From the sequence record OQ696342.1: a DNA stretch of 44,581 nt, one strand, 5' to 3'. Shown in pieces: positions 6,412 through 38,662 of the stretch. The notes beneath the pieces are model-generated. The model searched no databases. It saw only the letters and a list, made by a program, of their open reading frames with translations, and had not been told where the DNA came from. The position numbers were made by a program, and so were the translations under genes. Position 1 is the stretch's first letter. Every line of letters starts with the position of its first letter. Origin of the DNA: Escherichia phage vB_EcoS-K1_SXAU_B4.

Positions 6412-6730
6412 GTTTCTCCTTTCTCGATAAGTAAAGCCCCGCCATAAAGCGGGGCGCTAGTCCTTATCATTTAAACATAGAAACGGCGTAATCTCAGTAA
6501 ACCCGTTACTTTTTACACAAGCAATAGAGTATGACCCTTCCGAACGCGTCAGCGTAACTACACTCAGGACTTACGTCCCGCTCCGTTACCTGCCCGCGCC
6601 GCGGTCGCTTGTTCATACTTCACAAGCTCAGGTGGAGCTTAGCACATTTTTAGTGAAAAGTCAACTATTCGAATAGTTTATTCCAAGATTTACAATTCGG
6701 TGGAATAACTGGAATACACAAACAAATAGT

Positions 6731-6759
6731 TTGCACACACCAATATAATAGGGTACTAT
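6731..6759 (+). promoter_or_regulatory. Sigma70-type promoter TTGCAC-N17-TACTAT (cassette family copy)
   Basis: -35 at 6731..6736, -10 at 6754..6759; conserved leader with RBS GGAG 7 nt before ATG 6787. Confidence 0.6.
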
Positions 6760-7798: not shown

Positions 7799-8901
7799 TA
7801 TTCCCCTTTCAGATAATCAGCAACACGTTTATCGAGTTCCGCCATCTGCTTAAGCGTGAGCGGATTCCCGAAACCATCTACAGATATTACGCGAAACTCT
7901 TCCGGCGATATACCGCTGTTGCGGAAAATCTTACCGCGAACAGGGCCGAGCGCCTGGTCCTGAAACCATGCAGGTTGTTGTTTCAGGAACTCGTAATAAG
8001 TGGTGTCGGCGCTTACCTGAGTACCGCCGTCCGCACCTTTAGCCGCTCGTTTCGCTCCTACGTCCAGGAAGTCGAACTCGGAACTGATTACAGGGGCTGT
8101 GCACGACCGGCAATTCGGATGGGCGGGAGGCATCGGCCCTTTACCGATTTCCCACGTCATCCCATCTCTGGCCTTGCAAACGGCTGAGGTCCTAGAATCA
8201 AGAGTAGACACCCACTCGTACTTCTCGATGATGTCGTCGTTCTGGCGGTACGTCTCGTTGCGAGCTTCGTTGGATACGTGAGACAGCGCGGTGCGGATTA
8301 CTGTGGCTGCGTTACGTTCAGAGATGTCCGCCAGCCCGCCCGCGCCTACTACATTCTTAACAATCTGCCGTGTTGTCTGGCCTTGTACGAAACCCATCTT
8401 AACGCCAGTTACAAGACGTGCTACTTCCGTTTCACCCCAGCCCGACATCAGTTTAGTGAAGTCAACAGGCTTGTCGCTCAACGATAGCGGTTGAAACTCG
8501 GCAGCAGCCCACACCTGTTCAGCGGTAGGCGTAACAAATTCCGCATCTACGTTGGCGGTCAGTGTCTTTACGTTCCATTCAGCCTCATACGCCGCCAGCT
8601 CCTTAAGGTCTTCTGTCAGCTTTGTTTGCCAGTCACCTGTAAGTCCAGTTAGCGCTTCTTCGAGGTCACGTAACAGTTTATTCAGCCGGGCGGTGCTGCG
8701 ACCTTCGTCGCCAAATAGCAGAACCTGCCGTTTGATTTCGTCGCGCATTTCCTGAATGAACGGCGCAAGGTCTTTCACTTCACCGGAAGCGGTGCGTTGT
8801 AGCCATATCTGGTGGCTGATTAAGGATGTAAGTAAGCTCATAGGCCCTCCTGTAGTATCGACAGTGTAACGCATAAAAATAATATTTGCAGACACCAACA
8901 T
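7798..8901 (-). CDS. Head morphogenesis protein (Mu F-like / SPP1 gp7-like minor head protein)
   Basis: 367 aa; LDSRTSAVCKARDGMTW...PPAHPNCRSCTAP matches the Mu F family motif; downstream of the portal gene. Confidence 0.8.
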   Translation of the reverse strand: MLVSANIIFMRYTVDTTGGPMSLLTSLISHQIWLQRTASGEVKDLAPFIQEMRDEIKRQVLLFGDEGRSTARLNKLLRDLEEALTGLTGDWQTKLTEDLKELAAYEAEWNVKTLTANVDAEFVTPTAEQVWAAAEFQPLSLSDKPVDFTKLMSGWGETEVARLVTGVKMGFVQGQTTRQIVKNVVGAGGLADISERNAATVIRTALSHVSNEARNETYRQNDDIIEKYEWVSTLDSRTSAVCKARDGMTWEIGKGPMPPAHPNCRSCTAPVISSEFDFLDVGAKRAAKGADGGTQVSADTTYYEFLKQQPAWFQDQALGPVRGKIFRNSGISPEEFRVISVDGFGNPLTLKQMAELDKRVADYLKGE

Positions 8902-8914
8902 AATAGGGTACTAT
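8886..8914 (+). promoter_or_regulatory. Sigma70-type promoter TTGCAG-N17-TACTAT (cassette family copy)
   Basis: Near-identical to the 6731 and 41818 cassettes; leader TTATCGAAACGAGAGATAAGGAATTTAGAAATG. Confidence 0.6.
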
Positions 8915-11219: not shown

Positions 11220-12470
11220 TTAAAGTGCGAAAGTCACCGGGATGTTGATTACTGGTTTAACCACCGGCATCTCGTAAACTACAGGATAGCCTAGAGCATC
11301 CGCCATATGGTCGATGATGCCGTCTTTAGCTGGCTCTCCGTTATCGTCGTATGCCTGCTGCTCCAACGTCTTGGCTATCTCAGGGCATAAGTGGTCGTTA
11401 ACCCACAGCTTACCTTTTTCCAGCGCGGTATTCACTGCTAAAACCCGGTCTTTAACCGGTGGATTGGCAGATTTAGCGCGAACATCAAACCCGGCCTGCT
11501 GTAGTAAGGCGATATCAGAGATTGATGCCGAGTTGGTTTTGCGGTTCTTGCCGCTGGCGTCGGGGTAAACGACGATGCGGTGGCCTTGTGACTTCCACTT
11601 CTCAGTAATTACGCGCACGGTGTCCGGCGTATCGAACAGGCCCTTCAGTTCCGCCACCGCGTGCCAGCCGTCTTTACGTTGCACATACACGGCGCTTGCG
11701 TTCTTCGTAACGTTGAAGTCCTGCCCGATGTACAGCGTGTCCCCCGGCTGAATCGTCTCTTTGCTTCGGTGCTTACGGCGGTCATAGGCGTAGTAGACGC
11801 TGCCAGAGGTCAGGTTGACGAACTCACCGTTCAGATACGCGTTAATCAGTTGCGCGGGGTAAGTCTCGGTCAGCGAGCTAATGTAATCCGGCGGCAGGAA
11901 TCTGGCATTCTCGTGAGTGGACGCCTGCACCATCGAGTAACTCGGTGTCGGATTCTCTTTGAACTTGGCGTACACGAACTTGAACCCTTCCGGCGTCGTG
12001 GTAACAGAGATGTGGTTAGTTACGCCAGGGATAACCAGACGCATACGGGCTACTATTTTGTTCCAGGCCAGTTCAGCTTTCTCGCGGCTCAATACGTCCA
12101 GTTCATCCACGACCGCAGCGGCGATTTTGAAGCCGACTATCGAACCAGGGTTATCCATCGAACGGCAGATAACAGTTCCGAGCACCGTCTTACCACGAGT
12201 AACCACGACCTCTTTGTCACCGGATTTAACCAGCACATCAAGGCCGAGCAGGTTAGCAGCTTCCTCGAATGTCGGGTAGAAGATGTCACGGATAGCCGGG
12301 TATGTGGGGCCAAAATAGCCCAGGCGCGTACCGGGGTGCTTGAGCATGAACGTAAGCAGGTCAAGGCAGCCGACAAATGTCTTGCCGCTGCCGAAGCCCC
12401 CGACATAGGCTTTGTATTTGTTGTCGCAATTCAGGAACAGTGCCTGCGGGGCGGATAGCTGAATACTCAT
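11220..12470 (-). CDS. terL: Terminase large subunit
   Basis: 416 aa; Walker A GGFGSGKT, Walker B-like VVDELD, C-terminal nuclease-like region. Confidence 0.9.
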   Translation of the reverse strand: MSIQLSAPQALFLNCDNKYKAYVGGFGSGKTFVGCLDLLTFMLKHPGTRLGYFGPTYPAIRDIFYPTFEEAANLLGLDVLVKSGDKEVVVTRGKTVLGTVICRSMDNPGSIVGFKIAAAVVDELDVLSREKAELAWNKIVARMRLVIPGVTNHISVTTTPEGFKFVYAKFKENPTPSYSMVQASTHENARFLPPDYISSLTETYPAQLINAYLNGEFVNLTSGSVYYAYDRRKHRSKETIQPGDTLYIGQDFNVTKNASAVYVQRKDGWHAVAELKGLFDTPDTVRVITEKWKSQGHRIVVYPDASGKNRKTNSASISDIALLQQAGFDVRAKSANPPVKDRVLAVNTALEKGKLWVNDHLCPEIAKTLEQQAYDDNGEPAKDGIIDHMADALGYPVVYEMPVVKPVINIPVTFAL

Positions 12471-17996: not shown

Positions 17997-18160
17997 TTAC
18001 CCCGAACTCGTTGATGATTTGCGCCTTGTAGAAGTTGCCGTTTGAGGCCAGGTGGTACGCCTGCACCATTGTCATCTCGCGATAAGTTGCTGCGCTGTTT
18101 TCGAATTCCATAACCATCAAAGTAACCATCTTCTGTCTCTCCTCTCGTTTGTGTAAATGA

Positions 18161-18189
18161 ATAGTAGCCTAGTCTATCCCAGTGTGCAA
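18161..18189 (-). promoter_or_regulatory. Sigma70-type promoter TTGCAC-N17-TACTAT on the minus strand (cassette family copy)
   Basis: Reverse complement gives TTGCAC (18189..18184), 17-nt spacer, TACTAT (18166..18161); followed by leader AAACGAGAGGAG and ATG 18129. Confidence 0.55.
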
Positions 18190-18521
18190 GTAAATTTTAT
18201 TGGTGTTTGTATTGTTGCATCTCCTGCAATAGTCGCTTCGATTGTTGCGTTTAACTTAGTGTCGCCTTTTGACGACACTAAGTTAAAGTTGTACGCTGCT
18301 GTGTAGCAGCGTAAGACACAAAGACAAATAGTAAACTATTGACCTGTTACACCACCTGTTACACCGGCCCGATATTGCGCTCCGGCTTTCCACGCCCGCC
18401 ACGCGAGACGCGTCTTAACGTTCAGGTATGCTTTCTTTGGTCCCTTGTTAACCGGCAACCCCTCGACGATGGCCCACCGTTCAAATGCTTGTCTCATAAA
18501 TCAACCCCCACAATTAAAATA

Positions 18522-18728
18522 TTATTCACGGCAACCTCCCTCAGAGTCGTCGGCACGAGCATCTTGATTCGATGCCGTTCGTAAGGAACGCAGGAGTTTA
18601 ACCAGCATCTCCGGTGATGATGTTGAAATTTCTTCACCATCAAGTGTGGCAATCGCATATCGTTTAATTGTGAAATTAACTTCTATTAATCTATGGTGTT
18701 TCAGCTCTTCAAATAATTCTTCCATCAC
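18522..18728 (-). CDS. Hypothetical protein
   Basis: 68 aa ORF. Confidence 0.4.
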   Translation of the reverse strand: MMEELFEELKHHRLIEVNFTIKRYAIATLDGEEISTSSPEMLVKLLRSLRTASNQDARADDSEGGCRE

Positions 18729-18919
18729 TTCGCCCCTTTTAATTTAAAATTGTTGCCGATGAGTTCTAAATCACATTTACGAAGTAATCCTTTGCCGTAA
18801 CCCGTGACGCTATTAACCTCCGCAAAACCGAACCACATTAGCTTCGATTCTATTACCGTAAATAAATTGCCTGTAAATTTATCCCTAACCAACTGACCCT
18901 TCTTAAACATAACCCTCAC
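18725..18919 (-). CDS. Hypothetical protein
   Basis: 64 aa ORF. Confidence 0.4.
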   Translation of the reverse strand: MRVMFKKGQLVRDKFTGNLFTVIESKLMWFGFAEVNSVTGYGKGLLRKCDLELIGNNFKLKGAK

Positions 18920-18928
18920 TCCTCTGCC

Positions 18929-19147
18929 TTATTTAAAGTAGATAGCAAATTTCTTGTAACCCGCGGGCTCGTTACGAAGCCCTTTGCCGTTGGCAAAACG
19001 TTGTACGTTGATAAAATCATTTTCATCCATTCCGTCGGTGTCGAACGTAAAGAAGTTGCGCTTGTTCCCAATAACTACGCGCTCAGAAATATCGATGCCG
19101 TAAACTTCTTTGATTGCGGAAACTACGCTTGCGGTCGCTTTGTTCAT
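18929..19147 (-). CDS. Hypothetical protein (first gene behind the 19182..19210 promoter)
   Basis: 72 aa; leader identical to that of the 8949 gene. Confidence 0.45.
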   Translation of the reverse strand: MNKATASVVSAIKEVYGIDISERVVIGNKRNFFTFDTDGMDENDFINVQRFANGKGLRNEPAGYKKFAIYFK

Positions 19148-19181
19148 TTCTAAATTCCTTATGTCTCGTTTCGATAAGTGA

Positions 19182-19210
19182 ATAGTATCCTATTATATTG
19201 GGGTGTGCAA
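19182..19210 (-). promoter_or_regulatory. Sigma70-type promoter TTGCAC-N17-TACTAT on the minus strand (cassette family copy)
   Basis: Reverse complement: TTGCAC (19210..19205), 17-nt spacer, TACTAT (19187..19182); leader TCACTTATCGAAACGAGACATAAGGAATTTAGAAATG. Confidence 0.6.
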
Positions 19211-19443
19211 GAGAATAGTTACGTTGCCGTTGAGATTCTTCAGGTGGGGTTGTGCCTTTATTCTTATTACTTGGTAACTAAAGGGCAGGCCCTAAGCCTG
19301 CCCAATAATCGTTACATTTTTACTGTTGCGAATCTACGGCACATTAAGAAACAGTAGATATTTCAGTGGGTTACTTTTTTAAATGAGATTTAGATACACT
19401 TATCCTTAAACCCCAAGGCAAGCATCTCAGCTGTCTGGGAGGG

Positions 19444-19475
19444 GTTGACGAATCCCTCGGGGAGGGTTCGTCAAC
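19444..19475. promoter_or_regulatory. 32-bp near-perfect palindrome GTTGACGAA-tccctcggggaggg-TTCGTCAAC in the divergent intergenic region (candidate operator or structured element)
   Basis: 9-bp perfect inverted arms plus an inner ccctc/gaggg inverted repeat. Confidence 0.4.
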
Positions 19476-19569
19476 TCCGTAATATATACAAGTCCCAAAA
19501 CCATTATACAAACATGTGTCAAGAACTTTCAATAACTTTTTTGTAAAGATTAAATATTGCAGGGATTGG

Positions 19570-19598
19570 TTGCTTTTACATTCCCGCTATCCTATACT
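19570..19598 (+). promoter_or_regulatory. Candidate sigma70 promoter TTGCTT-N17-TATACT for the plus-strand replication operon
   Basis: Hexamers with 17-nt spacing, about 30 nt upstream of the ATG at 19630. Confidence 0.45.
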
Positions 19599-19629
19599 CA
19601 GCTTCACCAAACAAACAGGAGATATAGAA

Positions 19630-19812
19630 ATGCAACATTACATGACACAGAATGAAGTAGCCGAGCGTATTGGGGTAACGCGTCAGACAATTAATAACTG
19701 GTTGCGCAGTGGTAAATTCCCTGACTGCTGTATTAAGGTTATGGGTCGCCGTTTACCAGGTACATTTGACCGTAATAAAGTTGAAGAATGGATTAAGGAG
19801 AATGTGAAATGA
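19630..19812 (+). CDS. Small HTH DNA-binding protein (AlpA/Xis-like)
   Basis: 60 aa from ATG 19630 (RBS GGAG); TQNEVAERIGVTRQTINNWLRSGKFP is HTH-like; the longer ORF from 19516 would start upstream of the promoter. Confidence 0.55.
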   Translation: MQHYMTQNEVAERIGVTRQTINNWLRSGKFPDCCIKVMGRRLPGTFDRNKVEEWIKENVK

Positions 19813-20099
19813 AAGGTGTAATTTTCCACAATAAAGCAGAAAACGAAGTGTATATGGTTCACTCCGTGGCGGGAGAGTTCGCTTTATGCTTCAACATCTC
19901 TTGCCACCTCGATACCTACCGGCCTTTCTGTGTAGAAACAGAAATGAAGCTAATTAGCTTACGCCAACTAAGCACCATGTCGGCGTCGCTTAACGTAAGA
20001 GATAATCTCGAGTATATCGACTTCTATTTCGGCGATGATTTGGTCGAGGAATATTTTGAAGAGTATAAAAATTTGCTGGAAGAGTTGGCTAAACGGTAA
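19809..20099 (+). CDS. Hypothetical protein
   Basis: 96 aa; ATGA-type overlap with the upstream gene. Confidence 0.5.
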   Translation: MKGVIFHNKAENEVYMVHSVAGEFALCFNISCHLDTYRPFCVETEMKLISLRQLSTMSASLNVRDNLEYIDFYFGDDLVEEYFEEYKNLLEELAKR

Positions 20100-23646: not shown

Positions 23647-24164
23647 ATTGGCATGAACTGTTTGACTATGACCCTGTCACAGGGAAATTGTATTGGAAAA
23701 TAAGCCCTTCTCAAGCTGTAAAGGCTGGCGATGAGGCTGGTACTCTTTGCGGGGGAGGGCGTAGCTGTGACAAGAAATATTTAAGGGTGTGCTATAGGAG
23801 AAAGTTTAAGCAGGTACACCACGTAGTATGGGAAATGTTCAACGGACCTTTAAAAGATGGTGAGGAGATTGACCACATAAATCATATAAGAACAGATAAT
23901 AGGCTAGAGAATTTAAGGAAGGTGTACCGCAGCGATAACGCCAAAAATAGAAGTATGCCAATAAACAATACTTCCGGGGTGCATGGTGTTTCATACTTCT
24001 ATCGTACCAGTATGTGGGTTGCAAGAATAGGGGTAAATGGTAAGTCTATATTTTTAGGGAAATACAATAATTTAGAAGAAGCGGCGCTCGCCAGACGACA
24101 GGCAGAAGTAACATATGGGTTTCATAAAAATCACGGAGCTAAAAAGAATGACTTTAAAAGCTAA
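23643..24164 (+). CDS. Free-standing HNH homing endonuclease with an AP2-like DNA-binding domain
   Basis: EIDHINHIRTDNRLENLR (HNH) followed by SGVHGVSYFYRTSMWVARIGVNGKSIFLGKYNNLEEAALAR (AP2-like); ATGA overlap with the upstream stop. Confidence 0.8.
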   Translation: MNWHELFDYDPVTGKLYWKISPSQAVKAGDEAGTLCGGGRSCDKKYLRVCYRRKFKQVHHVVWEMFNGPLKDGEEIDHINHIRTDNRLENLRKVYRSDNAKNRSMPINNTSGVHGVSYFYRTSMWVARIGVNGKSIFLGKYNNLEEAALARRQAEVTYGFHKNHGAKKNDFKS

Positions 24165-25395
24165 AGATAGGAGCGGGAGTAACGACGTACACGCCTTATT
24201 GTCTCCATCCGGTGCTAAGAAATGGCTAACATGTCCTGCGTCGCTGATATGCGAAAAAGATATCCCCAACACTTCCGGCAGGGCCGCAGTGTTAGGTACG
24301 GCAATGCATAGCATTTCTGAATATCATTTAAACGCGTATATACGCGGCACTGCGCTGCCGTTAGAGCGCGAAGTAGGTGCTTACGTGCTGGACGAGGGCA
24401 AAGGCCCGATTAAGGCGCTAATCAGCCCGATGAAAGGTGCGGTACTGATTACGGCGGACATGATTGAACAGGTGCGAAAGTACACTGACTACTGCAAAGC
24501 GATTATCGATGTAGCAACTTACGCCAAGCTGGAAATGCGCGTCAATCTTACTGAGGTATTGCATCCGGGGTATGAAGGCGTCGAGACGTTCGGGACTGCT
24601 GACCTTGTTGCCGTACAGGAACTGGCTAATACCGATGAACATATGCTCATTATCGGCGACCTTAAAACAGGACGGCATCGTGTCGAAGCAAAAGAAAACA
24701 AGCAGCTTATGCTTTACGCTCTCGGTGTTTATCGCAGACTAAAGAGACGTTATAGCATCACAGTTGTGCGTCTGGTGATATTCCAGCCGTACGCTGGTGG
24801 CGCGTCGGAGTGGGACATCTCAGTTGAAGGTCTGGAACTGTTCGCTAAGTTTGCGCAAAAACGTGCGCTGTTAGCTCTTGATGCTTATTCCCGTGGCAAG
24901 AAGAATCTGAAAGCGTCGGACTTCAGGCCGTCGGTAGATGGCTGTCAGTGGTGTCGTTTCTCCGAACAGTGCGCCGCGCGTACAAAAACCGTTAATTCTG
25001 TACTGGCGGAAGAACTGGAGGACGACTTTGCGCTGGAACTGACGCCGGAGCAACTCGTCGCTGAGTATGAGAAGTTGCCGTTGTTGCGCCAGCACATCGA
25101 CAAGGTTGAGAAAGCGATGGCCACCGCGTTGCATTCTGGTAAGAAAGTGCCAGGGTACAAACTGGTTGAGGGTAAGATGGGCAACCGTGCGTGGAAAGAC
25201 GCCGAGAAAGTGACGGAACTGTACGGCGACAAGCTGACTAAAGAAGTGCTCATGACGCCGACTGAAGCGGTTAAAGTAATACCGGAGGAAGAACTGAAAG
25301 ACTTCATCACCCGCAAGCCGGGCGCGCCATGTGTTGCAACGGTAGACGACAAACGTCCTGAGTGGAATCAGGTTAGTGAAGAAGATTTGGAATAA
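24148..25395 (+). CDS. PD-(D/E)xK exonuclease (RecB/Cas4-like, DUF2800-type)
   Basis: GDLKTGRH...E.KENKQLMLYALG nuclease core and a C-terminal Cys cluster (CQWCRFSEQC); start placed at ATG 24148 with RBS GGAG. Confidence 0.7.
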   Translation: MTLKAKDRSGSNDVHALLSPSGAKKWLTCPASLICEKDIPNTSGRAAVLGTAMHSISEYHLNAYIRGTALPLEREVGAYVLDEGKGPIKALISPMKGAVLITADMIEQVRKYTDYCKAIIDVATYAKLEMRVNLTEVLHPGYEGVETFGTADLVAVQELANTDEHMLIIGDLKTGRHRVEAKENKQLMLYALGVYRRLKRRYSITVVRLVIFQPYAGGASEWDISVEGLELFAKFAQKRALLALDAYSRGKKNLKASDFRPSVDGCQWCRFSEQCAARTKTVNSVLAEELEDDFALELTPEQLVAEYEKLPLLRQHIDKVEKAMATALHSGKKVPGYKLVEGKMGNRAWKDAEKVTELYGDKLTKEVLMTPTEAVKVIPEEELKDFITRKPGAPCVATVDDKRPEWNQVSEEDLE

Positions 25396-25399
25396 AGTG

Positions 25400-25428
25400 T
25401 TGACACCTGAATAGTTAGCTATTATATT
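25400..25428 (+). promoter_or_regulatory. Sigma70-type promoter TTGACA-N17-TATATT with an AATAG-N4-CTATT core
   Basis: -35 at 25400..25405, -10 at 25423..25428, upstream of the SSB-like gene. Confidence 0.55.
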
Positions 25429-25484
25429 TCTAATCACTGGCCGGGCAGCTTCCCGGAGTAAACTGAAAACTGAGGAATCGAGAA

Positions 25485-26111
25485 ATGGGACTGAAATTAA
25501 ATCTGCGTAAAGTAAACACTGCATGGGTTAACGTATTCGAACGCGAAAAAGACCGTGAAAACGATGATGGCTCAATCACTAAAGGTCAGTACAGCGCAAC
25601 TATCATCCTGCCGTCCAACCATGCTCAAATCGACGCGCTCTACGATACCGTCTACGCTGTAGTTGAAGAAGCATTAGGCGCAGCCGCTGCCGAGAAGTGG
25701 ATGAAGTCCAACTACGGCGAAGGTAAGCACATGGATAAATGCGCGATTAAAGACATTGCTGAGCGCGACAATCCGTTCGAAGACTTCCCGGAAGGCTTCT
25801 ACTTCAAAGCGAAGGCACAGAAACAGCCACTGATTGTAACCTCTAAAAAAGGCGAGACTCAGGTAGAGCAGGACTTCAACGTAGATGGCGAACAGATTGA
25901 AGGCGAACAGGTTTACAGCGGCTGCGTAGCTAACGTAAGCGTCGAAATCTGGTTCAGCCAGAAATACAAAGTCCTCGGCGTTAACCTGCTGGCAATTAAA
26001 TACGTTGGCGAAGGTAAAGCGTTCGGCGGTTCTAAAGTCGCTGCAAGCGTCAATGACCTGGAAGACGACGAAGAAGATGAAGCACCGCGCCGCGAACGTC
26101 GTCGCCGCTAA
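25485..26111 (+). CDS. Single-stranded DNA-binding protein (DUF2815-like)
   Basis: 208 aa with an acidic C-terminal tail (DLEDDEEDEAPRRERRRR); conserved position next to the DUF2800-like nuclease and Pol A. Confidence 0.65.
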   Translation: MGLKLNLRKVNTAWVNVFEREKDRENDDGSITKGQYSATIILPSNHAQIDALYDTVYAVVEEALGAAAAEKWMKSNYGEGKHMDKCAIKDIAERDNPFEDFPEGFYFKAKAQKQPLIVTSKKGETQVEQDFNVDGEQIEGEQVYSGCVANVSVEIWFSQKYKVLGVNLLAIKYVGEGKAFGGSKVAASVNDLEDDEEDEAPRRERRRR

Positions 26112-26131
26112 TATCTGAATCAATTTAACTA

Positions 26132-26154
26132 AGGCCCTTCATTGGGCCTTTTTA
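26132..26154 (+). terminator. Rho-independent terminator (aaggccc-ttcatt-gggcctt + TTTTT)
   Basis: GC stem followed by a T-run between the SSB and polymerase genes. Confidence 0.65.
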
Positions 26155-26170
26155 CTAAGGGTCGAAAATA

Positions 26171-29100
26171 ATGAGTTACCTGTTCTTAGACTTTGAAACA
26201 TTCTCCGAAGCCGATTTAAAGAAAGTTGGCTCCTACGCTTACGCCGAACACCCGACTACAGAAGTGCTTATCTGTACCTATGCTTTTGATGACGAGCCTG
26301 TGCAGGTATGGGATTGCACCAACGGCAGCGACATGCCGGGGGATTTGCACCGCGCCTTGCGCCGCCTGGTTAAGCCAAACAGTCGCATCAAGATGGTGTG
26401 GCACAACGGCTCAATGTTCGATCGCCTAATCATGAAACACTGCTGGGGCTTTGATATTCCGGTAAGCAACACCATCGATACGATGATTTGGGCGTTTCGT
26501 CACGCGCTGCCTGGTTCACTTGATGCGTTGTGTGAAGTGCTGGGGGTATCTGCTGACAACGCGAAGGATAAACGCGGCAAGGCGCTGATTCAGCGTTTCT
26601 CTAAACCGACGCCGAAGAACTACAAAATACGCCGCTACACCGCCGAAACACACCCGGACGAGTGGGCGCTGTTCATCAAGTACGCTGTGAGCGACATCAC
26701 TGCGATGCGTGAAGTCTTCCATAAGCTGCCGCGTTGGGGTAACTCAGAGTTCGAGGACCGTGTACTGGAACTGGACCAGTTAATCAATGACCGTGGGTTT
26801 AAGGTTGACGTGGCACTGGCGGAAGCCGCGATTGAAGCCGTGGAGAAACACAAAGCGAAGTTACAGGAAGAAGCCCAACGCAAATACGGCGGCTCGCTTA
26901 CCGGTAAAGACTTCCTTCCTATTCTGCGTGAACTGGCCCCAGCGCACCGAATCCACAACGCGCAGAAGTCGACACTGAATGACCTGCTGGCGGATGATGA
27001 TTTACCTGACGACGCCCGCACTATTATCGAAATGCGCCTCGGGGCCGCGTCCACAGCGTCAACGAAATATACACCGCTGCTGCTGGGCCGCTCTTCGGAC
27101 GACCGCCGTCGTGGTTGCTTGCAGTACGGCGGGGCAAAACGCACTCTGCGATGGGCCGGTAAAGGCTTCCAGCCGCAGAACCTCGCGCGCGGGTACTATC
27201 ACGATGACGAACTGGATAAAGGCATTTCAGCGTTACTTAAGGGTCGTGCGCATCGCCGTTTCGATGTAGCCAAGCTAACGGCATCGACGGTTCGTAGCTG
27301 CATCATTCCGGAAGCAGGACATAAGTTTGTCGTCGCCGATTACTCGAACGTTGAAGGCCGGGGGCTTGCGTGGCTGGCGGGTGAAGAAACCGCGCTTGAT
27401 ACTTTCCGCGCCGGGTTGGATATTTATTGCGTAACCGCAGGTAAGATGTTTGGCATGGACCCAGACGACATTAAGAAAGAACGTAAAGACTTGCGCCAGA
27501 TTGGTAAAGCCTGCCTTCACCGCCATACCCAAGTTTTGACCGATGGCGGATTTAAGGATATTATGGCGGTCACATCGACAGATAAAGTATGGAGTGGTGA
27601 AAAATGGGTGAATACAAAAGGCGCGCACCTTATGGGGTGGAAACCGGTAATAAATGTGGACGGGGTGCTAATGACCGAAGACCACAAAATCTTGGCGCAT
27701 TCCTGGAAGCAGGCAAAGCAACTCGCTTCAAACAGATATATGATGGGCCTCGCCCTGGAGAGAGGTATGGACGCTTGGTTATCCTGCGCGAGTTACCAAA
27801 ACGACAAGGCCAAAGACAACTACTCGTCCAATGTGATTGCGGAGAGATGCCAGGGCGGGTCTATTATGACAACGTCAGAGCGGGTAAAACCACTCAATGC
27901 AACCGCTGCGCCCTTGAAGCAACAAAAAAATATCGTAAACAGTATTTCTGCTACGAAGACGCAATGCCGGATGATGCGCACAGAACGCGATTACTCAACC
28001 GGCTGTCAGCGGCGATCACGCGAACAACAAGCCCCAGGGATAAGGGTTATAAAAACTATGGGGCAAGAGGCATCACGGTATTCGACCAGTGGAGGACTGA
28101 TAAAAGGTCTTTTCTTAGATATGTTCAAACTCTGGAAGGCTGGGATGACCCGAACCTCGAAATGGATAGAATCGACACAGACGGTAACTACGAACCTGGA
28201 AACATTCGGTTTGTCAGCCGTTCTGAAAACTGCCGAAACAGACGGCAAATACCCGAGCTTCAACGAAAGTATGATGCAGCCGTTGCCCGCATTGCTGAAC
28301 TTGAGCGGGAAATTAACCTACTGCGAGCCGGTGTACGACCTGATTGATGTGGAAGACGGCAACCGTTTTCTTATAGCCTCAGACTCTGGCTTTCTTGTGG
28401 CGCATAACTGCGAGCTTGGCCTCGGCTACGAGGGTGGCGTCGGGGCGTTCGTTCAGTTTGCTAAAAACTTAGGTCTCGACCTTATTGAGATGGCAAAAAC
28501 AATGGACGGGACTTTCCCCGACCACATCTGGGCTGCTACCGCACGTGGGTATGAGTGGGCGCGTATTCAGGAAGCAAAGCGGCCACCACATCCAGGTGAA
28601 AAGGACGACCGACCATCGTATATTCTGGACAAGAAAGTGTGGCGCACATGTGACGCAATCAAGCGTATGTGGCGCGAGTCACACCCCGAAACAGTAGCGT
28701 TCTGGCGCGACCTTAAAGACGGAATTTTAGCCGCTGTTCGTAATCCTGGTCGTGAATTTTGGGCGGGAGCGCACTTGCGCGGGAATGGGGAAAGGGCTAT
28801 CCGCATATGGCGCACTGTAGAATTTGATTCATCCGGCAGGAAGGTTCCAGGTTGGTGGTTGTGTGTGGAGTTGCCGTCAGGCCGCATCCTCTCGTATCCG
28901 GGAATCGGCGTTAGTGTGACAAAGGAAACAGACGAAGACGGACGAGTAAACACGAATGTGCGAATCAAGTATCAGGGTGAAAACCAGTTAACCCGCCAAT
29001 GGACTACCCTGTACACCCACGGCGGCAAAGCCTGCGAAAACATTGTTCAGGCGCTGTGCCGTGATTTACTCGCATATGCAATGATTAATGTTGAGGGTGG

Positions 29101-29269
29101 CGGGTATCCCATCGTGCTTTCTGTACACGATGAACTGGTGTGCGAAACTCCAGACACACCGGAATACAATGTCGCAGAGCTTGAGCGGTTGATGTGCGCG
29201 TTGCCCGAGTGGGCAGAAGGCTTCCCTCTTGTAGCGGAAGGGCAGGAGTTAAAACGCTATGCTAAGTAA
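26171..29269 (+). CDS. Family A DNA polymerase (3'-5' exonuclease plus polymerase domains) interrupted by an in-frame intein at 27512..28408
   Basis: Exo motifs DFETFS, HNGSMFD, YAVSDI; Pol motif A VVADYSNVEGRGLAW; motif B RQIGKA|C...|CELGLGYEGG split by the intein; motif C SVHDELV. Confidence 0.9.
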   Translation: MSYLFLDFETFSEADLKKVGSYAYAEHPTTEVLICTYAFDDEPVQVWDCTNGSDMPGDLHRALRRLVKPNSRIKMVWHNGSMFDRLIMKHCWGFDIPVSNTIDTMIWAFRHALPGSLDALCEVLGVSADNAKDKRGKALIQRFSKPTPKNYKIRRYTAETHPDEWALFIKYAVSDITAMREVFHKLPRWGNSEFEDRVLELDQLINDRGFKVDVALAEAAIEAVEKHKAKLQEEAQRKYGGSLTGKDFLPILRELAPAHRIHNAQKSTLNDLLADDDLPDDARTIIEMRLGAASTASTKYTPLLLGRSSDDRRRGCLQYGGAKRTLRWAGKGFQPQNLARGYYHDDELDKGISALLKGRAHRRFDVAKLTASTVRSCIIPEAGHKFVVADYSNVEGRGLAWLAGEETALDTFRAGLDIYCVTAGKMFGMDPDDIKKERKDLRQIGKACLHRHTQVLTDGGFKDIMAVTSTDKVWSGEKWVNTKGAHLMGWKPVINVDGVLMTEDHKILAHSWKQAKQLASNRYMMGLALERGMDAWLSCASYQNDKAKDNYSSNVIAERCQGGSIMTTSERVKPLNATAAPLKQQKNIVNSISATKTQCRMMRTERDYSTGCQRRSREQQAPGIRVIKTMGQEASRYSTSGGLIKGLFLDMFKLWKAGMTRTSKWIESTQTVTTNLETFGLSAVLKTAETDGKYPSFNESMMQPLPALLNLSGKLTYCEPVYDLIDVEDGNRFLIASDSGFLVAHNCELGLGYEGGVGAFVQFAKNLGLDLIEMAKTMDGTFPDHIWAATARGYEWARIQEAKRPPHPGEKDDRPSYILDKKVWRTCDAIKRMWRESHPETVAFWRDLKDGILAAVRNPGREFWAGAHLRGNGERAIRIWRTVEFDSSGRKVPGWWLCVELPSGRILSYPGIGVSVTKETDEDGRVNTNVRIKYQGENQLTRQWTTLYTHGGKACENIVQALCRDLLAYAMINVEGGGYPIVLSVHDELVCETPDTPEYNVAELERLMCALPEWAEGFPLVAEGQELKRYAK
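27512..28408 (+). mobile_element. Intein (299 codons) inserted in polymerase motif B
   Basis: Block A CLHRHTQVLTDGGFKDI, block B VLMTEDHKIL, blocks F/G VYDLIDVEDGNRFLIASDSGFLVAHN followed by Cys+1; the in-frame central part has no recognisable endonuclease motif. Confidence 0.8.
27604..28347 (+). CDS. HNH endonuclease (HNH_3-like) encoded in an alternative frame, nested entirely inside the intein
   Basis: Own RBS GGAG (27590..27593) and ATG 27604 just after an in-frame stop; Cys cluster CDCG...QCNRC and HNH core NYGARGITVFDQW...LEMDRIDTDGNYEPGNIRFVSRSENCRNRR. Confidence 0.7.
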   Translation: MGEYKRRAPYGVETGNKCGRGANDRRPQNLGAFLEAGKATRFKQIYDGPRPGERYGRLVILRELPKRQGQRQLLVQCDCGEMPGRVYYDNVRAGKTTQCNRCALEATKKYRKQYFCYEDAMPDDAHRTRLLNRLSAAITRTTSPRDKGYKNYGARGITVFDQWRTDKRSFLRYVQTLEGWDDPNLEMDRIDTDGNYEPGNIRFVSRSENCRNRRQIPELQRKYDAAVARIAELEREINLLRAGVRPD

Positions 29270-29390
29270 ACTGATTATCGCGATACTGGCGGGATTCGCC
29301 GCCGGTGTCTACTGTCACGAGGGTCAATACGGCATGATTGCCGCTGTATTGGGCATGTTCATCGCAATTTATCTGTGGGTGCTGGAATGA
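29259..29390 (+). CDS. Small membrane protein (43 aa)
   Basis: Manually found; overlaps the polymerase stop; hydrophobic MLSKLIIAILAGFAAGV...; below the ORF-track cutoff. Confidence 0.35.
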   Translation: MLSKLIIAILAGFAAGVYCHEGQYGMIAAVLGMFIAIYLWVLE

Positions 29391-29476
29391 AAATTTACTG
29401 GTTCTACGAAGAAGACTGCCGACTCTGCCCGCGCTGCGGTATTGAACATACGAAACGTGAGGGGTGCGTATTATGA
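29387..29476 (+). CDS. Small zinc-ribbon peptide (29 aa)
   Basis: ATGA coupling; DCRLCPRCG...C cysteines. Confidence 0.3.
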   Translation: MKIYWFYEEDCRLCPRCGIEHTKREGCVL

Positions 29477-29625
29477 CAATGTTTGTATTTTGGACGATAG
29501 CGACCATGCTCGCACTGTTACTTGGTGCAGGAATAGCTGCGATGTTCTGTTATGGCCTGTTCTTTAAGTTTGTCGGTGTTGCCGTTCTCAGTGGAGCTTT
29601 CCTTACTTGGATTCTGCGCTCATGA
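29473..29625 (+). CDS. Small membrane protein (50 aa)
   Basis: ATGA coupling on both ends; two hydrophobic segments. Confidence 0.35.
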   Translation: MTMFVFWTIATMLALLLGAGIAAMFCYGLFFKFVGVAVLSGAFLTWILRS

Positions 29626-29924
29626 CCCAGGAAGGCAAGATTCAGAAATACGCAAAAGAGCGATTCGAGGCCATCGGTGGCCTCGTTCGCAAATTGTCGT
29701 ACGAAAATAGAGCAGGCGCTCCTGACCTGCTGGTAATTCTCCACGGCGGCGTCATCTGGTTCGTCGAGGTTAAGAAAGACGAGAACACGAAGCCAGACCC
29801 ACACCAGTTACGGGAGCACGAGCGGATGCGTAAGCGTGGCGCAAATGTTTTTGTCGTCGGTTCGTTTAAACAGGTTGACGCCCTAATAGCAGACTATTAT
29901 AGTAGTCATACACCAACAATATAA
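29622..29924 (+). CDS. VRR-NUC domain nuclease
   Basis: GAPDLLVILHGGVIWFVEVKK matches the VRR-NUC PD-(D/E)xK pattern; start placed at ATG 29622 (ORF track begins at TTG 29607). Confidence 0.7.
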   Translation: MTQEGKIQKYAKERFEAIGGLVRKLSYENRAGAPDLLVILHGGVIWFVEVKKDENTKPDPHQLREHERMRKRGANVFVVGSFKQVDALIADYYSSHTPTI

Positions 29925-29935
29925 GGAATTGAGAA

Positions 29936-30127
29936 ATGAAACACGAATATGACCGCAAACCAGCCCGTGACATCGTACCTGGCGACATGATTTTCAACGT
30001 TAAGACCCGCCGCCCTGTTGCCGTTGATACAGTGTTTGTAGAGTCGAACGGTAAACTGGTTATCGAAGATGTAACTGGTAATGTTACAGCGTTCGGGCGT
30101 AAAGAGCTGGTGCTGGTGGCAAAATGA
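29936..30127 (+). CDS. Hypothetical protein
   Basis: 63 aa ORF. Confidence 0.45.
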   Translation: MKHEYDRKPARDIVPGDMIFNVKTRRPVAVDTVFVESNGKLVIEDVTGNVTAFGRKELVLVAK

Positions 30128-30904
30128 ACTATTACAACGAATGGGATAAGGGCGCAGCCGCGTGGCTGCGCGAATTAATAAAACAGGGCCACATACCTTT
30201 TGGAGTTGTAGATGAAAGAAGCATTACCGAAGTTAAGCCAGAAGACCTCGACGGGTTCACCCAGTGTCATTTTTTCGCTGGTATCGGCGGCTGGCCTCTC
30301 GCGCTCAGACTTGCGGGAGTTTCGGAAGACACGCCTTGCTGGACGGGAAGCCCGCCTTGCCAACCGTTTAGTGCGGCAGGAAAGCAACTCGGACAGTTCG
30401 ACCCTAGACACCTCGCGCCCGTATTCCTCGACCTCATCAGCGAGTGCCGCCCTCCAGTCCTCTTTGGGGAGCAGGTTGCGCCAGCAATTGCAAAATCGTG
30501 GATGTGCGATTTACAAACTCACCTGGAAGGAGAAGACTACGCCGTCGGGTTTGCTGTACTCCCAGCTTGTAGCGTCGGCGCACCGCACAAAAGAGAACGA
30601 CTGTTCTTTGGTGCGTACAACCTGGCCAACACCGACAGCGAACGACTACAGGGGGAGCGGAGAGACAGTGATTCGCAAGGACGGGAAGGACAGGACATTC
30701 GACAGGCTGGACTACTCGACGGAGCAGGGTCTGAAAATAATACAACCTATTCGCATCACGGCTTCTGGTCAGATGCTGACTGGCTCGGATGCCGGGATGG
30801 AAAATTCAGGCCGGTTGAACCCGGCACATTCCCGCTGGCTAATGGGATTCCCGCCAGAGTGTGACGATTGCGCGGTTACGGCAATGCCATCATCCCGCAA
30901 GTAG
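30124..30904 (+). pseudogene. DNA (cytosine-5)-methyltransferase with an apparent +1 frameshift near 30605..30625
   Basis: N-terminal motifs in the 30124 frame: FAGIGG (I), PCQPFS (IV), FGEQV (ENV-like, VI), PHKRERLFFG (VIII). C-terminal motifs WPTPTANDYRG and LNPAHSRWLMGFP sit in the +1 frame (ORF 30212..30904). Confidence 0.6.
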
Positions 30905-30940
30905 CCGCTGAATTCATAAAGGCGTTCATGGGGGCTGTAA

Positions 30941-32365
30941 ATGAGTAAGTTTCAAAGGCGCGAGTACCAGAAGCTCATGACCTCATTCATGTTGCGGCAC
31001 CATCGCTGTAATATTTGGGCAAGCATGGGTGCCGGGAAGACTGGCAGCGTACTGTGGGCTTTAAACCGCCTGTTCCGCAACGGGCAACTTACGGACGACG
31101 ACCGCGTGTTAATACTCGCCCCGCTGCGCGTTGCGTCCGGCACATGGCCAGCAGAACAAGAGAAATGGCAATTCCCGTGTCTGAATGTCGTAGATGCGAC
31201 AGGTTCGGAGAAACGCCGCATCGCGGCGCTGGAGTCAGACGCTAACGTTGTGTGCACGAACTACGAAGTTATTGAATGGCTGATTGATTACTACGGCAAA
31301 GACGACTGGCCTTTTACGGTTATTGTTGCCGACGAGAGCACGAAGCTAAAGTCATTCCGTAGCCGTTCGGGCGGTAGTAAGAGGGCAAAGGCTCTTAGCA
31401 AAGTGGCGTTCGGTAGGGTTAAGCGTTTCATCAACCTTACGGGTACGCCATCGCCAAACGGCCTCAAAGACTTGTGGGGGCAGAACTGGTTTATCGACGC
31501 CGGCGAGCGCCTCGGGTCTTCATACACGGCATTCACTGACCGCTGGTTTAACTCGGTACAGAAAGGCAAATCGGCTATGGCGCGGGAGTATCACGCCCGC
31601 CCTGGTGCGGATAATGAAATTCACCAGAAGATGAAGGACATTAGTCTCACGATTGACGCTGCCGAGTGGTTCGGTTGTGAAGCGCCGATTATCGTACCGG
31701 TTGAAATTGACCTGCCGAAGAAAGCGCGTCAGGCGTACATCGATATGGAGGAAAAGTTATTCGCGGAACTGGAGAGTGGAGAAGTTGAAGCGGCTAACGC
31801 GGCGGCGAAGACGTCGAAGTGCTTGCAGATTGCATCCGGCGCCGTGTATGTTTCGGGACCAGACGGCGAAGCAACGAAAGACTGGGAGAAAGTGCACGAC
31901 ACGAAACTTGATGCGCTTGAGTCCATTGTTGAGGAGTTACAAGGCGCACCGTTGCTGGTGGCCTATCAGTTTAAGCATGAACTGGAGCGCATCCTGAAAC
32001 GTTTCCCGCAGGCACAGTCGTTTGCCAAAGGTGCTAAGGGTAATAAGCAGATGGAAGCGTGGAACCGTGGTGAGATACCTATGCTTCTGATACACCCGGC
32101 CTCCGCGGGCCACGGGCTGTCGCTACAACACGGCGGGCATCACATGGCTTTTATGAGTCAGGGGTGGAACCTGGAGCATTATCTGCAGGTTATCGAGCGT
32201 ATAGGCCCAGTAAGGCAGATGCAATCCGGATACAAACGGTCTGTATTCATTTATCAAATAATAGCCCGAGATACTCTTGATGAAGTTGTTGCCGCGCGTA
32301 CCGACGAGAAAAAATCGGTACAGGAAGAGTTGCTTAATTACATGAAGAGACGAGGTAAGAAATGA
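30941..32365 (+). CDS. SF2 (SNF2/DEAD-like) helicase
   Basis: 474 aa; Walker A GAGKTG, DExx box VADESTKL, C-terminal helicase region. Confidence 0.8.
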   Translation: MSKFQRREYQKLMTSFMLRHHRCNIWASMGAGKTGSVLWALNRLFRNGQLTDDDRVLILAPLRVASGTWPAEQEKWQFPCLNVVDATGSEKRRIAALESDANVVCTNYEVIEWLIDYYGKDDWPFTVIVADESTKLKSFRSRSGGSKRAKALSKVAFGRVKRFINLTGTPSPNGLKDLWGQNWFIDAGERLGSSYTAFTDRWFNSVQKGKSAMAREYHARPGADNEIHQKMKDISLTIDAAEWFGCEAPIIVPVEIDLPKKARQAYIDMEEKLFAELESGEVEAANAAAKTSKCLQIASGAVYVSGPDGEATKDWEKVHDTKLDALESIVEELQGAPLLVAYQFKHELERILKRFPQAQSFAKGAKGNKQMEAWNRGEIPMLLIHPASAGHGLSLQHGGHHMAFMSQGWNLEHYLQVIERIGPVRQMQSGYKRSVFIYQIIARDTLDEVVAARTDEKKSVQEELLNYMKRRGKK

Positions 32366-32499
32366 ACATCATAGCCCCGATTCCAGCATTGCAAAAACGT
32401 ATCAAGGAACTAGAAGAAGAGGTTCTGCGCCTACGGCAGCAAAGAGACGCTGCTAACGCGCAACTGGCGTTTGTACTGGAGAAATTATCAGAAGAGTAG
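32362..32499 (+). CDS. Small coiled-coil protein (45 aa)
   Basis: Manually found; ATGA overlap with the helicase stop; MNIIAPIPALQKRIKELEEEVLRLRQQ. Confidence 0.3.
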   Translation: MNIIAPIPALQKRIKELEEEVLRLRQQRDAANAQLAFVLEKLSEE

Positions 32500-32503
32500 A
32501 GAA

Positions 32504-32523
32504 AAGGCCCCGTTTGGGGCCTT
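32504..32523. terminator. Bidirectional terminator hairpin (aaggcccc-gttt-ggggcctt)
   Basis: 8-bp GC stem between the convergent replication and tail modules. Confidence 0.6.
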
Positions 32524-32527
32524 AGTT

Positions 32528-34729: not shown

Positions 34730-34741
34730 ATAGAGTCCTCT

Positions 34742-37297: not shown

Positions 37298-37653
37298 AAT
37301 TCAATCTCCGTGTACGTGTCTCTGAGGTCCGCCAGCCTGTCAAGTCGCACCTGACGTGAAGCAAGCTCGCAATGGCTCACCATCCCGTCGAAGTAAACTC
37401 CTGCGTGCCACACGATACGACCACCACGGCGATATCCCATAAGCACCGCACAGAAGTTTTCAGGCTTATCAATTTTTGTAAGCCCCTTCGTGTCACGGTG
37501 GCCTTCGTCAAACGCTTCGTTAATCGCCGTTGGGCTTGTAACGTCGAACGCCGGTGTTTCTAACCCGGCATCCGCTCGTACAATGCGCACGTGATGCCAG
37601 CAATTGCGTTTGCGAAAGTCGTAAGGTATGCCCGTGTAGTCGTTAATATTCAT
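37288..37653 (-). CDS. Tail assembly protein (lambda gpK-like, NlpC/P60-type Cys/His residues)
   Basis: 121 aa; CWHH...H pattern; position in the lambda-like order. Confidence 0.5.
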   Translation of the reverse strand: MNINDYTGIPYDFRKRNCWHHVRIVRADAGLETPAFDVTSPTAINEAFDEGHRDTKGLTKIDKPENFCAVLMGYRRGGRIVWHAGVYFDGMVSHCELASRQVRLDRLADLRDTYTEIEFWR

Positions 37654-38180: not shown

Positions 38181-38662
38181 ATTCGTGGAAACGTTGACTG
38201 CGCGGTTCCGTATGCCTTAAGGAAACATCCCAGCCCGTCGCCATAGCAACCGTACAAATCTGGTAGATTGCGAACAAGGCACTGGTTATCTTCGTCCTGG
38301 AACGGCGATTTCTCTGCGGTTGCCGTGAAAGTAATCGTCCAGTTAATGCCGTCTTCGGTGGACTCGGCGATGGTGGACGTAATGGTTACCTGATAGTCCT
38401 CAATACCCATGCCGAAGTCGTGCGCCATCCAGAAACTTGACGCACCGCCGTCTACTTTTTCGAGGAACGACAGAAACGCCTGCCGTCCCAGTGCCGATGT
38501 AATCAGGGTTACGCTTATCGGAAACACGTCGTAATATGTGTCACGGCCCTGACGCACCCCGCCACCAGCTAAATCAACGCTCCAGACGTTGTTACGTCTG
38601 GTCATTGAGTAGCCTTTCGATACAATGGGCTTAAGACTACGTGGGAAATATAAGTCAGTCAT
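38162..38662 (-). CDS. Minor tail protein (lambda gpM-like, by position)
   Basis: 166 aa ORF immediately after the tape measure gene. Confidence 0.45.
   Translation of the reverse strand: MTDLYFPRSLKPIVSKGYSMTRRNNVWSVDLAGGGVRQGRDTYYDVFPISVTLITSALGRQAFLSFLEKVDGGASSFWMAHDFGMGIEDYQVTITSTIAESTEDGINWTITFTATAEKSPFQDEDNQCLVRNLPDLYGCYGDGLGCFLKAYGTAQSTFPRIWDPMQ

Follow-up and report, generated by a model that had tools for sequence, protein, structure and literature searches.

Genomic setting of the palindrome

The present analysis concerns a palindrome of 32 base pairs (bp) in the genome of Escherichia phage vB_EcoS-K1_SXAU_B4 (OQ696342.1), the whole 44,581-nucleotide (nt) stretch of which is referred to here as the window. 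The palindrome is located at positions 19444-19475, in a non-coding gap between two divergent gene blocks, and we regard it with moderate confidence as the RNA stem-loop of a short, allelic non-coding transcript. The 1.4 kb surrounding it showed 95% identity to the E. coli phages Bas70 and JSSK01 and matched 480 phage records, nearly all of which belong to the Guernseyvirinae (Kagunavirus on E. coli and Jerseyvirus on Salmonella). By these matches, the window is classified as the genome of an E. coli Kagunavirus.

The gap extends from 19148 to 19629 and measures 482 bp, in line with the roughly 480 bp assigned to it in the original prediction for this DNA. On its right side, the HTH_17 gene is followed by genes for proteins of 96 and 42 amino acids (aa) and for a helicase-primase of 735 aa with an AAA_25 domain. 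In relatives, this replication module continues with an exonuclease, a protein annotated as a Gp2.5-like single-stranded DNA-binding protein (SSB), a DNA polymerase and a helicase. The original prediction had placed the gap between divergent early operons and had spoken of two helix-turn-helix (HTH) proteins. The gene blocks are indeed divergent, but the leftward block, encoded by the minus strand, is not purely early, since its small genes lead on to the genes for the holin, the endolysin, the terminase and the portal protein. Likewise, the right-hand neighbour is a protein of the HTH_17 family, but the left-hand one is not recognizable as an HTH protein (Table 1).

Sequence and folding of the palindrome

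Inspection of the sequence confirmed exactly the palindrome that had been proposed, with its perfect 9-bp arms and an inner 5-bp inverted repeat. One T (position 19453) is bulged, and the inner repeat closes on a 3-nt loop. The pairing can be extended to 19441-19478, for which the repeat search returned arms of 15 nt (19441-19455 and 19464-19478). Folded as RNA, the palindrome reached -27.9 kcal/mol on the plus strand (z-score of -4.5) and -24.0 kcal/mol on the minus strand (z-score of -6.1), and none of 200 shuffled sequences folded as well. The corresponding DNA folds had energies of -15.4 and -13.6 kcal/mol (z-scores of -5.4 and -5.7). Among all 50-nt folds on both strands of the whole window the palindrome ranked fifth, and comparison of positions with the lists of open reading frames (ORFs) placed all four stronger folds within long ORFs, which makes the palindrome the top non-coding fold. 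It should be noted that perfect 9-bp arms as such are not rare, as six distinct cases were found in the window against about 3.5 k-mer matches in shuffled sequences. The significance of the palindrome therefore resides in its self-complementarity over nearly the full length, through the spacer down to the 3-nt loop. This symmetry points to intramolecular pairing rather than to two half-sites. Altogether, the palindrome is real and statistically solid.

The view that the palindrome is not a simple terminator, which had been based on the lack of a T-run, was borne out by the flanking sequences. No T-run or U-tract adjoins the palindrome on either strand, the tails being CTCCGTAAT on the plus strand and CCCCTCCCAG on the minus strand. 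An identity as intrinsic terminator was thus rejected: a GC-rich stem is present but without the U-tract, and the palindrome was not listed in the terminator scan. As a separate observation, the plus strand carries at 19437-19466 the G-runs GGG-A-GGGG-N14-GGGG-A-GGG, which overlap the palindrome, and a 22-nt direct repeat is found at 19434-19455 and 19457-19478. Judged from these runs, a G-quadruplex on the template strand of the leftward RNA described below is possible.

A predicted leftward transcript

The promoter scan identified within the gap a leftward promoter, P_up, that matches 11 of the 12 consensus positions (Table 1). Its predicted start is located near 19496, and the palindrome would therefore occupy about +20 to +53 of a leftward RNA. 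The predicted transcript folds with -72.3 kcal/mol (z-score of -4.4) and would end at a terminator-like hairpin, the stem of which (19303-19283) lies at about +194 to +214 from the predicted start. This is the second hairpin of the original prediction, GGGCAGGC-CCTAA-GCCTGCCC, whose presence at 19283-19303 was confirmed and which is terminator-like when read on the minus strand. Across 24 sequences, it shows compensatory changes between CG and UA and between AU and GC. In the record of phage fBC-Eco01, the P_up site is annotated as 'host promoter', the hairpin as a terminator and the second leftward promoter beyond it as 'phage promoter', all of these annotations being the output of prediction software only.

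The motif of the second leftward promoter (TTGCAC, 17 bp, TACTAT) is present in four near-identical copies in the window, where none would be expected, and in a fifth copy with a different spacer. It corresponds to the PHIRE motif of the fBC-Eco01 paper, in which it was assigned to a phage RNA polymerase (PMC9825357). From its sequence, the motif resembles a promoter for the host polymerase that includes an operator of its own, and a phage RNA polymerase is apparently not encoded. The spacer is nearly identical between the copies and contains the dyad AATAG-N4-CTATT, and three of the copies share the transcript start TCACTTATCGAAACGAG. Back-to-back with P_up, a rightward promoter, P_R, precedes the HTH_17 gene. 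P_R fell below the -35 threshold of the promoter scan and is conserved in all loci with cassette alleles A, B and C, which are defined below.

Three further observations relate to this region. Firstly, the -10-like hexamer TATATT (19482-19487, minus sense) is found at about +10 to +15, just before the palindrome hairpin, and by its sequence it could cause a sigma-dependent promoter-proximal pause. Secondly, the complementary sequences TGCCGT (19225-19230) and ACGGCA (19336-19341) bracket the terminator-like hairpin, and their 6-bp core is present in all five alleles of the cassette, which are otherwise unalignable; the pair could form a long-range helix in read-through RNA or represent inverted protein sites. 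Thirdly, two back-to-back perfect hairpins are located at 18250-18313 (minus sense), after a gene that ends at 18336. They have a 9-bp stem with a 4-nt loop and a 15-bp stem with an 8-nt loop, lack a T-run and are followed about 60 nt further on by a TTGCAC-17-TACTAT promoter; the region shows 79% identity to Jerseyvirus Ent2. The hairpin-then-promoter layout of 19303-19182 is thereby repeated.

Table 1. Positions of the features described in and around the non-coding gap of the window.
Feature	Position	Strand	Description
Palindrome	19444-19475	either	GTTGACGAA-T-CCCTC-GGG-GAGGG-TTCGTCAAC; read from the sequence and from the inverted-repeat search
P_up, predicted leftward promoter	19532-19503	-	sigma-70 type; -35 TTGAAA (19532-19527), 18-bp spacer, -10 TATAAT (19508-19503); promoter scan
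Predicted non-coding leftward transcript	19496-19280	-	about 215 nt; palindrome stem-loop, AT-rich stretch (about 100 nt), 3' domain common to alleles D and E
Terminator-like hairpin	19276-19303	-	GGGCAGGC-UUAGG-GCCUGCCC, then tail UUUAGUU; terminator scan; fold -21.4 kcal/mol
Second leftward promoter (predicted)	19210-19182	-	TTGCAC, 17 bp, TACTAT; just beyond the terminator-like hairpin, before the gene at ATG 19147, which it would drive
TTGCAC-17-TACTAT copies	6719-6757, 8874-8912, 41806-41844; 19210-19182; diverged copy 18190-18162	+, +, +; -; -	
P_R, predicted rightward promoter	19570-19598	+	TTGCTT, 17 bp, TATACT; precedes the HTH_17 gene, back-to-back with P_up; read from the sequence
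Exchangeable cassette	19244-19567	either	promoter, transcript and terminator; left flank ...GTTACGTTGCCGTTGTGATTCTT, right flank GGTTGCTTTTACA...; allele A in the window
Conserved non-coding block	19169-19366	either	3' part of the transcript, terminator and region upstream of the second promoter
HTH_17 gene	19630-19812	+	60-aa protein, Pfam HTH_17; starts the replication module right of the gap
First leftward gene	ATG at 19147	-	product without Pfam match; PHROG match to 'internal head protein'

An exchangeable cassette with at least five alleles

P_up, the predicted transcript and its terminator together form a cassette that is exchanged between phages. The gap was aligned for 22 loci, for 7 loci and then for 30 more sequences. 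Both flanks proved to be conserved across loci, with GTTACGTTGCCGTTGTGATTCTT and the second promoter on the left and GGTTGCTTTTACA and the HTH gene on the right. Between these flanks, at least five sequence-unrelated forms of the cassette (A to E) were found across the Guernseyvirinae. Alleles B and C, which belong to other Kagunaviruses, cannot be aligned with allele A of the window save for short motifs. Of the remaining alleles, D (Jerseyvirus) and E (in Bas73 and XY1, among others) have the 3' 85 nt and the terminator of allele A and differ from it in the 5' half. Within allele C (loci L004, L010, L013 and others), we noticed a (GAGT)n microsatellite that varies between 3 and about 6 copies from phage to phage and is located beside CGAAACGAAACGAAC repeats.

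The segment that is specific for allele A (19380-19540) was present in only 20 phage records, all of them of Kagunavirus and with 97.5-99.4% identity, and in a few IMG/VR and metagenome contigs. It had no match among 5,426 E. coli genomes. A host or prophage source of this segment was rejected on these grounds, the 20 Kagunavirus records being the only ones in the phage collection. A pattern scan of IMG/VR for variant palindromes returned the same Kagunavirus contigs together with unrelated matches at roughly chance level, and a metagenome scan with a flanking 18-mer yielded two further copies, both identical, and no variant. Indeed, the palindrome is identical in all of its approximately 25 known copies.

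A leftward promoter is present in each allele, and one or more long hairpins (z-scores of -1.9 to -5.3) come after it within +2 to +95. The promoters of alleles B to E have the conserved form TTGAC(A/T), 17 bp, TAAGnT. Alleles D and E comprise 15 distinct variants with four unrelated inner sequences, which all adopt one three-tier hairpin fold consisting of a basal stem of 5-6 bp, an asymmetric internal loop of 4 nt, a 5-bp stem and a variable upper stem. The basal stem covaries between AU, GU and GC pairs, and the second stem changes from GUAAA/UUUAC to GUAAG/CUUAC and to GUGAG/CU(U/C)AC. By this sequence covariation, the D and E variants show selection for the fold. With respect to the strand, the hairpins of the Jersey D alleles are more stable in the minus sense, with a difference of about 5 kcal/mol, and single variants of the terminator point to either strand (G.U versus A.C pairs). 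From its position, and not from homology, we infer that the palindrome is the allele A counterpart of the promoter-proximal hairpin.

The allelic structure also bears on the possibility that the palindrome has no function, being a fortuitous or selfish sequence prone to form a cruciform or a G-quadruplex, or else part of a small protein gene. We consider this highly unlikely. The restriction of the palindrome to one young allele would be compatible with it, as the invariance of the copies may reflect recent common descent, and so would be the G-runs of the plus strand and the annotation in Bas71 of a coding sequence (CDS) of 33 aa that begins at 19445, inside the palindrome. However, this ORF starts with a TTG within the palindrome arm and has no PHROG family, the same position holds a structurally conserved hairpin in all other alleles, and the shuffled sequences described above never folded as well.

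Coding potential and RNA families

A PHROG search with three ORFs called across the cassette gave no match. Over 19208-19357, the substitutions in 30 sequences showed no codon periodicity (24, 24 and 25 across the three positions), and a manual tally of the site list for the well-aligned core of this region gave 10, 10 and 11 substitutions by codon position. The periodicity test spans this conserved region, and for the allele A-specific 5' part with the palindrome it is the PHROG evidence that applies. Moreover, Jersey phages have an interrupted version of the plus-strand ORF that carries an annotation in some Bas phages. The conserved non-coding block (Table 1) matched 387 phage records and was 88.4% identical to Salmonella Jerseyvirus Ent2, whereas the rest of the genome was mostly 65-83% identical to Ent2 or could not be aligned. 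The block is thus among the best-conserved DNA between the two genera. Judged from these sequence comparisons, the cassette region is non-coding yet constrained.

In Rfam, the best match for 18900-19900 was Hrs12 with an E-value of 0.2 and 24.5 bits, which is not significant in view of a gathering score of 70. No match with an E-value up to 1 was obtained for alleles B to E, and the weak matches that were seen (E-values of 0.2 to 1.7) were only terminator-like. Complementarity of the transcript to other parts of the phage genome was at chance level only.

These results are relevant for the idea that the cassette encodes a trans-acting small RNA of about 215 nt, in which the palindrome would form a 5' structural domain while the conserved 3' domain and the terminator would act on a host or phage target. 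We regard this as quite improbable. The cassette indeed stands as a separate unit, with a promoter of its own and covariation in its terminator, its transcript is devoid of an ORF, the 3' 85 nt are preserved in phages of both E. coli and Salmonella, and an arms race could explain the allelic diversity. Against this stand the chance-level complementarity and the lack of an Rfam family match in any allele. In addition, the near-complete lack of similarity of alleles B and C to A, D and E is difficult to square with a common base-pairing target.

The palindrome as a candidate operator and its partner genes

According to one suggestion of the original prediction, the palindrome could be an operator. 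In that case, a dimeric phage or host protein would bind the two GTTGACGAA half-sites in double-stranded DNA, as an operator or roadblock, and regulate P_up or P_R. The position of the palindrome would suit such a role, as a perfect 9-bp dyad is found just downstream of a strong promoter (at about +20 to +53) and about 130 bp upstream of the start of P_R, and the HTH_17 gene adjoins the gap. Unrelated viral contigs, moreover, bear operator-like arrays of GTTGACGAA. However, the centres of the half-sites are 23 bp apart, which is not about one helical turn, and the spacer is itself an inverted repeat that closes on the 3-nt loop. Only one other exact half-site is present in the 44.6 kb, namely at 11814 inside the long ORF 11220-12470, and half-sites with one mismatch are scattered in coding DNA without any recurrence at other promoters. 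The HTH_17 protein is 98% identical beside B and C cassettes, which are free of the palindrome, and the D and E hairpins, being asymmetric and bulged, cannot be symmetric duplex operators. A better candidate for an operator would be the AATAG-N4-CTATT dyad in the repeated TTGCAC-17-TACTAT promoters. Because the HTH_17 protein is nearly unchanged next to palindrome-free cassettes and the half-site does not recur at promoters, we consider an operator role of the palindrome very unlikely.

The arrays mentioned above were seen in unrelated IMG/VR contigs of 40-52 kb (loci L171, L172, L175, L176, L177 and L179) and have the form GTTGACGAA-TT-GTTGACGAA-A-TTCGTCAAC in AT-rich intergenic DNA. They contain the 9-mer of the palindrome arms in a tight operator-like arrangement, and we found no link between these contigs and the window phage.

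The gene that follows the HTH gene was also considered as a potential partner of the palindrome. In loci L001-L189, this slot (19809-20099) is occupied by at least seven unrelated or distantly related small genes, including genes for 96-aa, 70-aa, 77-aa winged-helix-like and 91-aa proteins. The 96-aa form (95-98% identity, in about six distinct phages, without a Pfam or PHROG family) was found only together with the palindrome-bearing cassette, and this could be taken as support for an operator with a matched protein. B cassettes, however, are combined with four different genes in this slot and C cassettes with two. A simpler account of the association of allele A with the 96-aa protein is hence that the two are linked in a young clade. 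The HTH_17 protein, the 42-aa protein and the N-terminus of the helicase-primase do not track the cassette allele.

Interpretation of the palindrome and the cassette

In the reading to which we give moderate confidence, the host RNA polymerase would start leftward from the near-consensus promoter P_up and produce an untranslated RNA with a very stable stem-loop near its 5' end. This RNA would end, at least in part, at the GC-rich hairpin upstream of the second promoter. The stem-loop would act by pairing with itself, be it as RNA or as DNA that is transiently single-stranded, and would thus be a structural module rather than a duplex operator. What is observed comprises the sequence features and how they are conserved, covariation within the terminator and within the sister alleles, and an absence of coding signal, while P_up firing, termination at the hairpin and a replication role are what we infer from them. 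More tentatively, we propose as the most likely role of the transcript that of a cis-acting origin transcript as in lactococcal c2-type phages, which would drive replication initiation from a cassette placed between the replication module and the block of small, lysis and packaging genes. This proposal is favoured by the fact that the cassette abuts a replication module with a helicase-primase, a DNA polymerase and a Gp2.5-like SSB. An origin-associated element and an RNA processing site had both been mentioned in the original prediction, and both are possible, being compatible with an architecture in which a short non-coding RNA with a stem-loop is made between tandem promoters.

Several observations weigh against this reading of the palindrome. 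Its fold is 4 kcal/mol better on the plus strand than in the sense of the proposed RNA, owing to a G.U pair in the former and an A.C mismatch in the latter, and with the E hairpins likewise favouring the plus sense, by 1-4 kcal/mol including the palindrome, the signal for the strand is mixed. All of the approximately 25 copies of the palindrome are identical and thus offer no covariation in support of its own pairing. It is simpler than the hairpins of the other alleles and has no sequence similarity to them, its DNA matches being confined to allele A. In alleles B to E, the -10 elements agree with the consensus at only 3 of 6 positions and are therefore weak, and the tail of the terminator-like hairpin, UUUAGUU, is a weak U-tract. 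The minimum of the cumulative GC skew (-0.94) is found at 19-20 kb, within the stretch 18000-20000 in which the GC content is the lowest of the genome (0.425). However, this minimum coincides with the switch in the direction of transcription and is therefore no independent evidence for an origin. Lastly, the literature searched gave only in-silico lists of promoters and terminators for Kagunavirus and nothing relevant on transcripts or origins of Jerseyvirus, and no mapping of a replication origin or of early transcripts was found in it for either genus.

Alternatively, the palindrome could be a control element in the leader of the leftward operon. Transcripts would then stop at 19303-19283 unless they are modified, and the stem-loop would be a nut boxB-like or HK022 put-like RNA or a site for RNase III or RNA stability. 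We regard this as possible but unlikely. The order of the elements, with promoter, hairpin, terminator and then an operon that runs from small genes to the holin, endolysin, terminase and portal genes, would fit such a function. The same can be said of the -10-like TATATT in the initially transcribed region, of the two perfect T-less hairpins further downstream in the operon, each followed by a TTGCAC-17-TACTAT promoter, and of an alternative partner for the 3' arm of the palindrome at 19402-19414. On the other hand, there is no boxA-like sequence, the loop has 3 nt and is not a GNRA-like pentaloop, and a single hairpin is present instead of the two of put. No Q, N or other antiterminator is annotated anywhere in Ent2 or in 24000-43265 of Bas70, and since a promoter for the operon itself follows right behind the terminator, read-through is unneeded. 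RNase III sites span about two helical turns of RNA duplex, frequently with an internal loop; for such a site the palindrome, with 14-17 bp and one bulge, may be short, and the D and E hairpins measure about 20 bp with asymmetric loops.

The overall outcome for the original prediction is a mixed one: the palindrome is not a simple terminator and the nearby hairpin is real, but the operator is not supported. It had included neither P_up, which places the palindrome in a transcript, nor the allelic structure of the cassette and the restriction of this hairpin to one allele. As the probable stem-loop of an allelic non-coding transcription unit, the palindrome is previously undescribed, and the greater interest lies in the complete cassette. 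The analysis delimits a compact unit in which a predicted strong promoter and its structured, untranslated RNA are followed by a terminator and another promoter. One part of this unit is highly conserved between the two genera and the rest is swapped as alleles. This matters because Kagunaviruses and Jerseyviruses are widely isolated as phages for therapy and biocontrol. Should the cassette be an origin or a master early switch, it would offer a handle for phage engineering and for understanding mosaicism; as an origin, it would extend the c2-type 'origin transcript' design to enterobacterial phages, and if only a leader hairpin is concerned the finding is an ordinary one. A further-reaching idea, which we deem rather improbable, is that the cassette is a transcription-dependent origin or an early master control RNA of the Guernseyvirinae, with a non-coding RNA that exists in interchangeable forms and a promoter-proximal hairpin, here the palindrome, that determines specificity. 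The hairpin could then set replicon compatibility or competition between co-infecting phages, or serve to evade RNA-sensing host defence, and the A-specific 96-aa protein would be a possible allele-matched partner.

Comparison with known systems

With intrinsic terminators the palindrome has in common a GC-rich, stable stem-loop, but the neighbouring hairpin at 19303-19283 fits this class better. The lambda PR'-6S RNA-tR' region resembles the cassette in the order of its elements, namely a strong constitutive promoter, a structured RNA close to it, a terminator some 200 nt downstream and, beyond this, genes for lysis and morphogenesis. In contrast, the window has a second promoter after the terminator, and the related stretches of Ent2 and Bas70 inspected above have no annotated antiterminator. 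A lambda nut site was rejected, as no boxA (CGCTCTTA-like) run is present in 19444-19497 and the loop CCC/GGG has 3 nt, whereas boxB has a 5-bp stem with a GNRA-like pentaloop. The same applies to HK022 put RNA, which consists of two adjacent stem-loops of about 65-70 nt in total, compared with the single 32-nt hairpin of allele A.

At the primary origin of T7, where promoters 1.1A and 1.1B precede an AT-rich region, and in ColE1 with its RNA II, the origin is primed or opened by an RNA that starts at a strong promoter. Similarly, the window has a GC-rich hairpin followed by an AT-rich stretch of about 100 nt, beside a T7-like replication module (Gp2.5-like SSB, DNA polymerase and helicase-primase). 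It differs in that it would use the host RNA polymerase and no phage polymerase, and the predicted RNA is C-rich at the hairpin, which disfavours an R-loop. An RNA polymerase gene was annotated in none of the relatives inspected (all of Ent2 and 24000-43265 of Bas70). Hairpin promoters of the N4 type are recognised by a giant virion RNA polymerase that the phage encodes. Such a promoter was dismissed as well, since the inner hairpin fits in geometry (5-7 bp stem and 3-nt loop) but the largest ORF of the window encodes a DNA polymerase of 1032 aa. This ORF (26171-29269) equals in size the intein-annotated gp37 of Ent2, the Bas70 homologue has 726 aa, and by this comparison the DNA polymerase of the window probably carries an intein. 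In P4-type origins the iteron octamer is TGTTCACC. Such iterons were rejected for the cassette, because one copy was found in an allele E hairpin, none in the gap of the window, and no array was present.

Among described architectures, the closest to that of the window is the c2-type origin of the lactococcal Ceduovirus phages, which is located in a non-coding region between divergent modules and bordered by their first two promoters, PE1 and PE2, which are arranged in tandem and face the same way (PMC7150918). This origin has no ORF or ribosome-binding site. Its variable part is situated between the two promoters and occurs as three types, with identities above 90% inside a type and no relation from one type to another (PMC7150918). 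Its transcript PE1-T is untranslated and has been implicated in transcription-mediated initiation of replication, for which its length and its sequence and/or structure have been suggested to be crucial (PMC7150918). The parallel is architectural only, as there is no sequence homology with the window, and the c2 system has a Gram-positive host and plasmid replication by host functions alone. Also, the window phage encodes its own helicase-primase and polymerase, and the block that flanks its gap is not purely early. The 482-bp gap of the window holds two leftward predicted promoters (19532-19503 and 19210-19182), the template of its transcript is without a coding signal (periodicity, broken ORFs and no PHROG match), and alleles A to E lie between conserved flanks with the copies of A being 97.5-99.4% identical. 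In silico, the window reproduces each of these sequence-level features of the c2-type origin.

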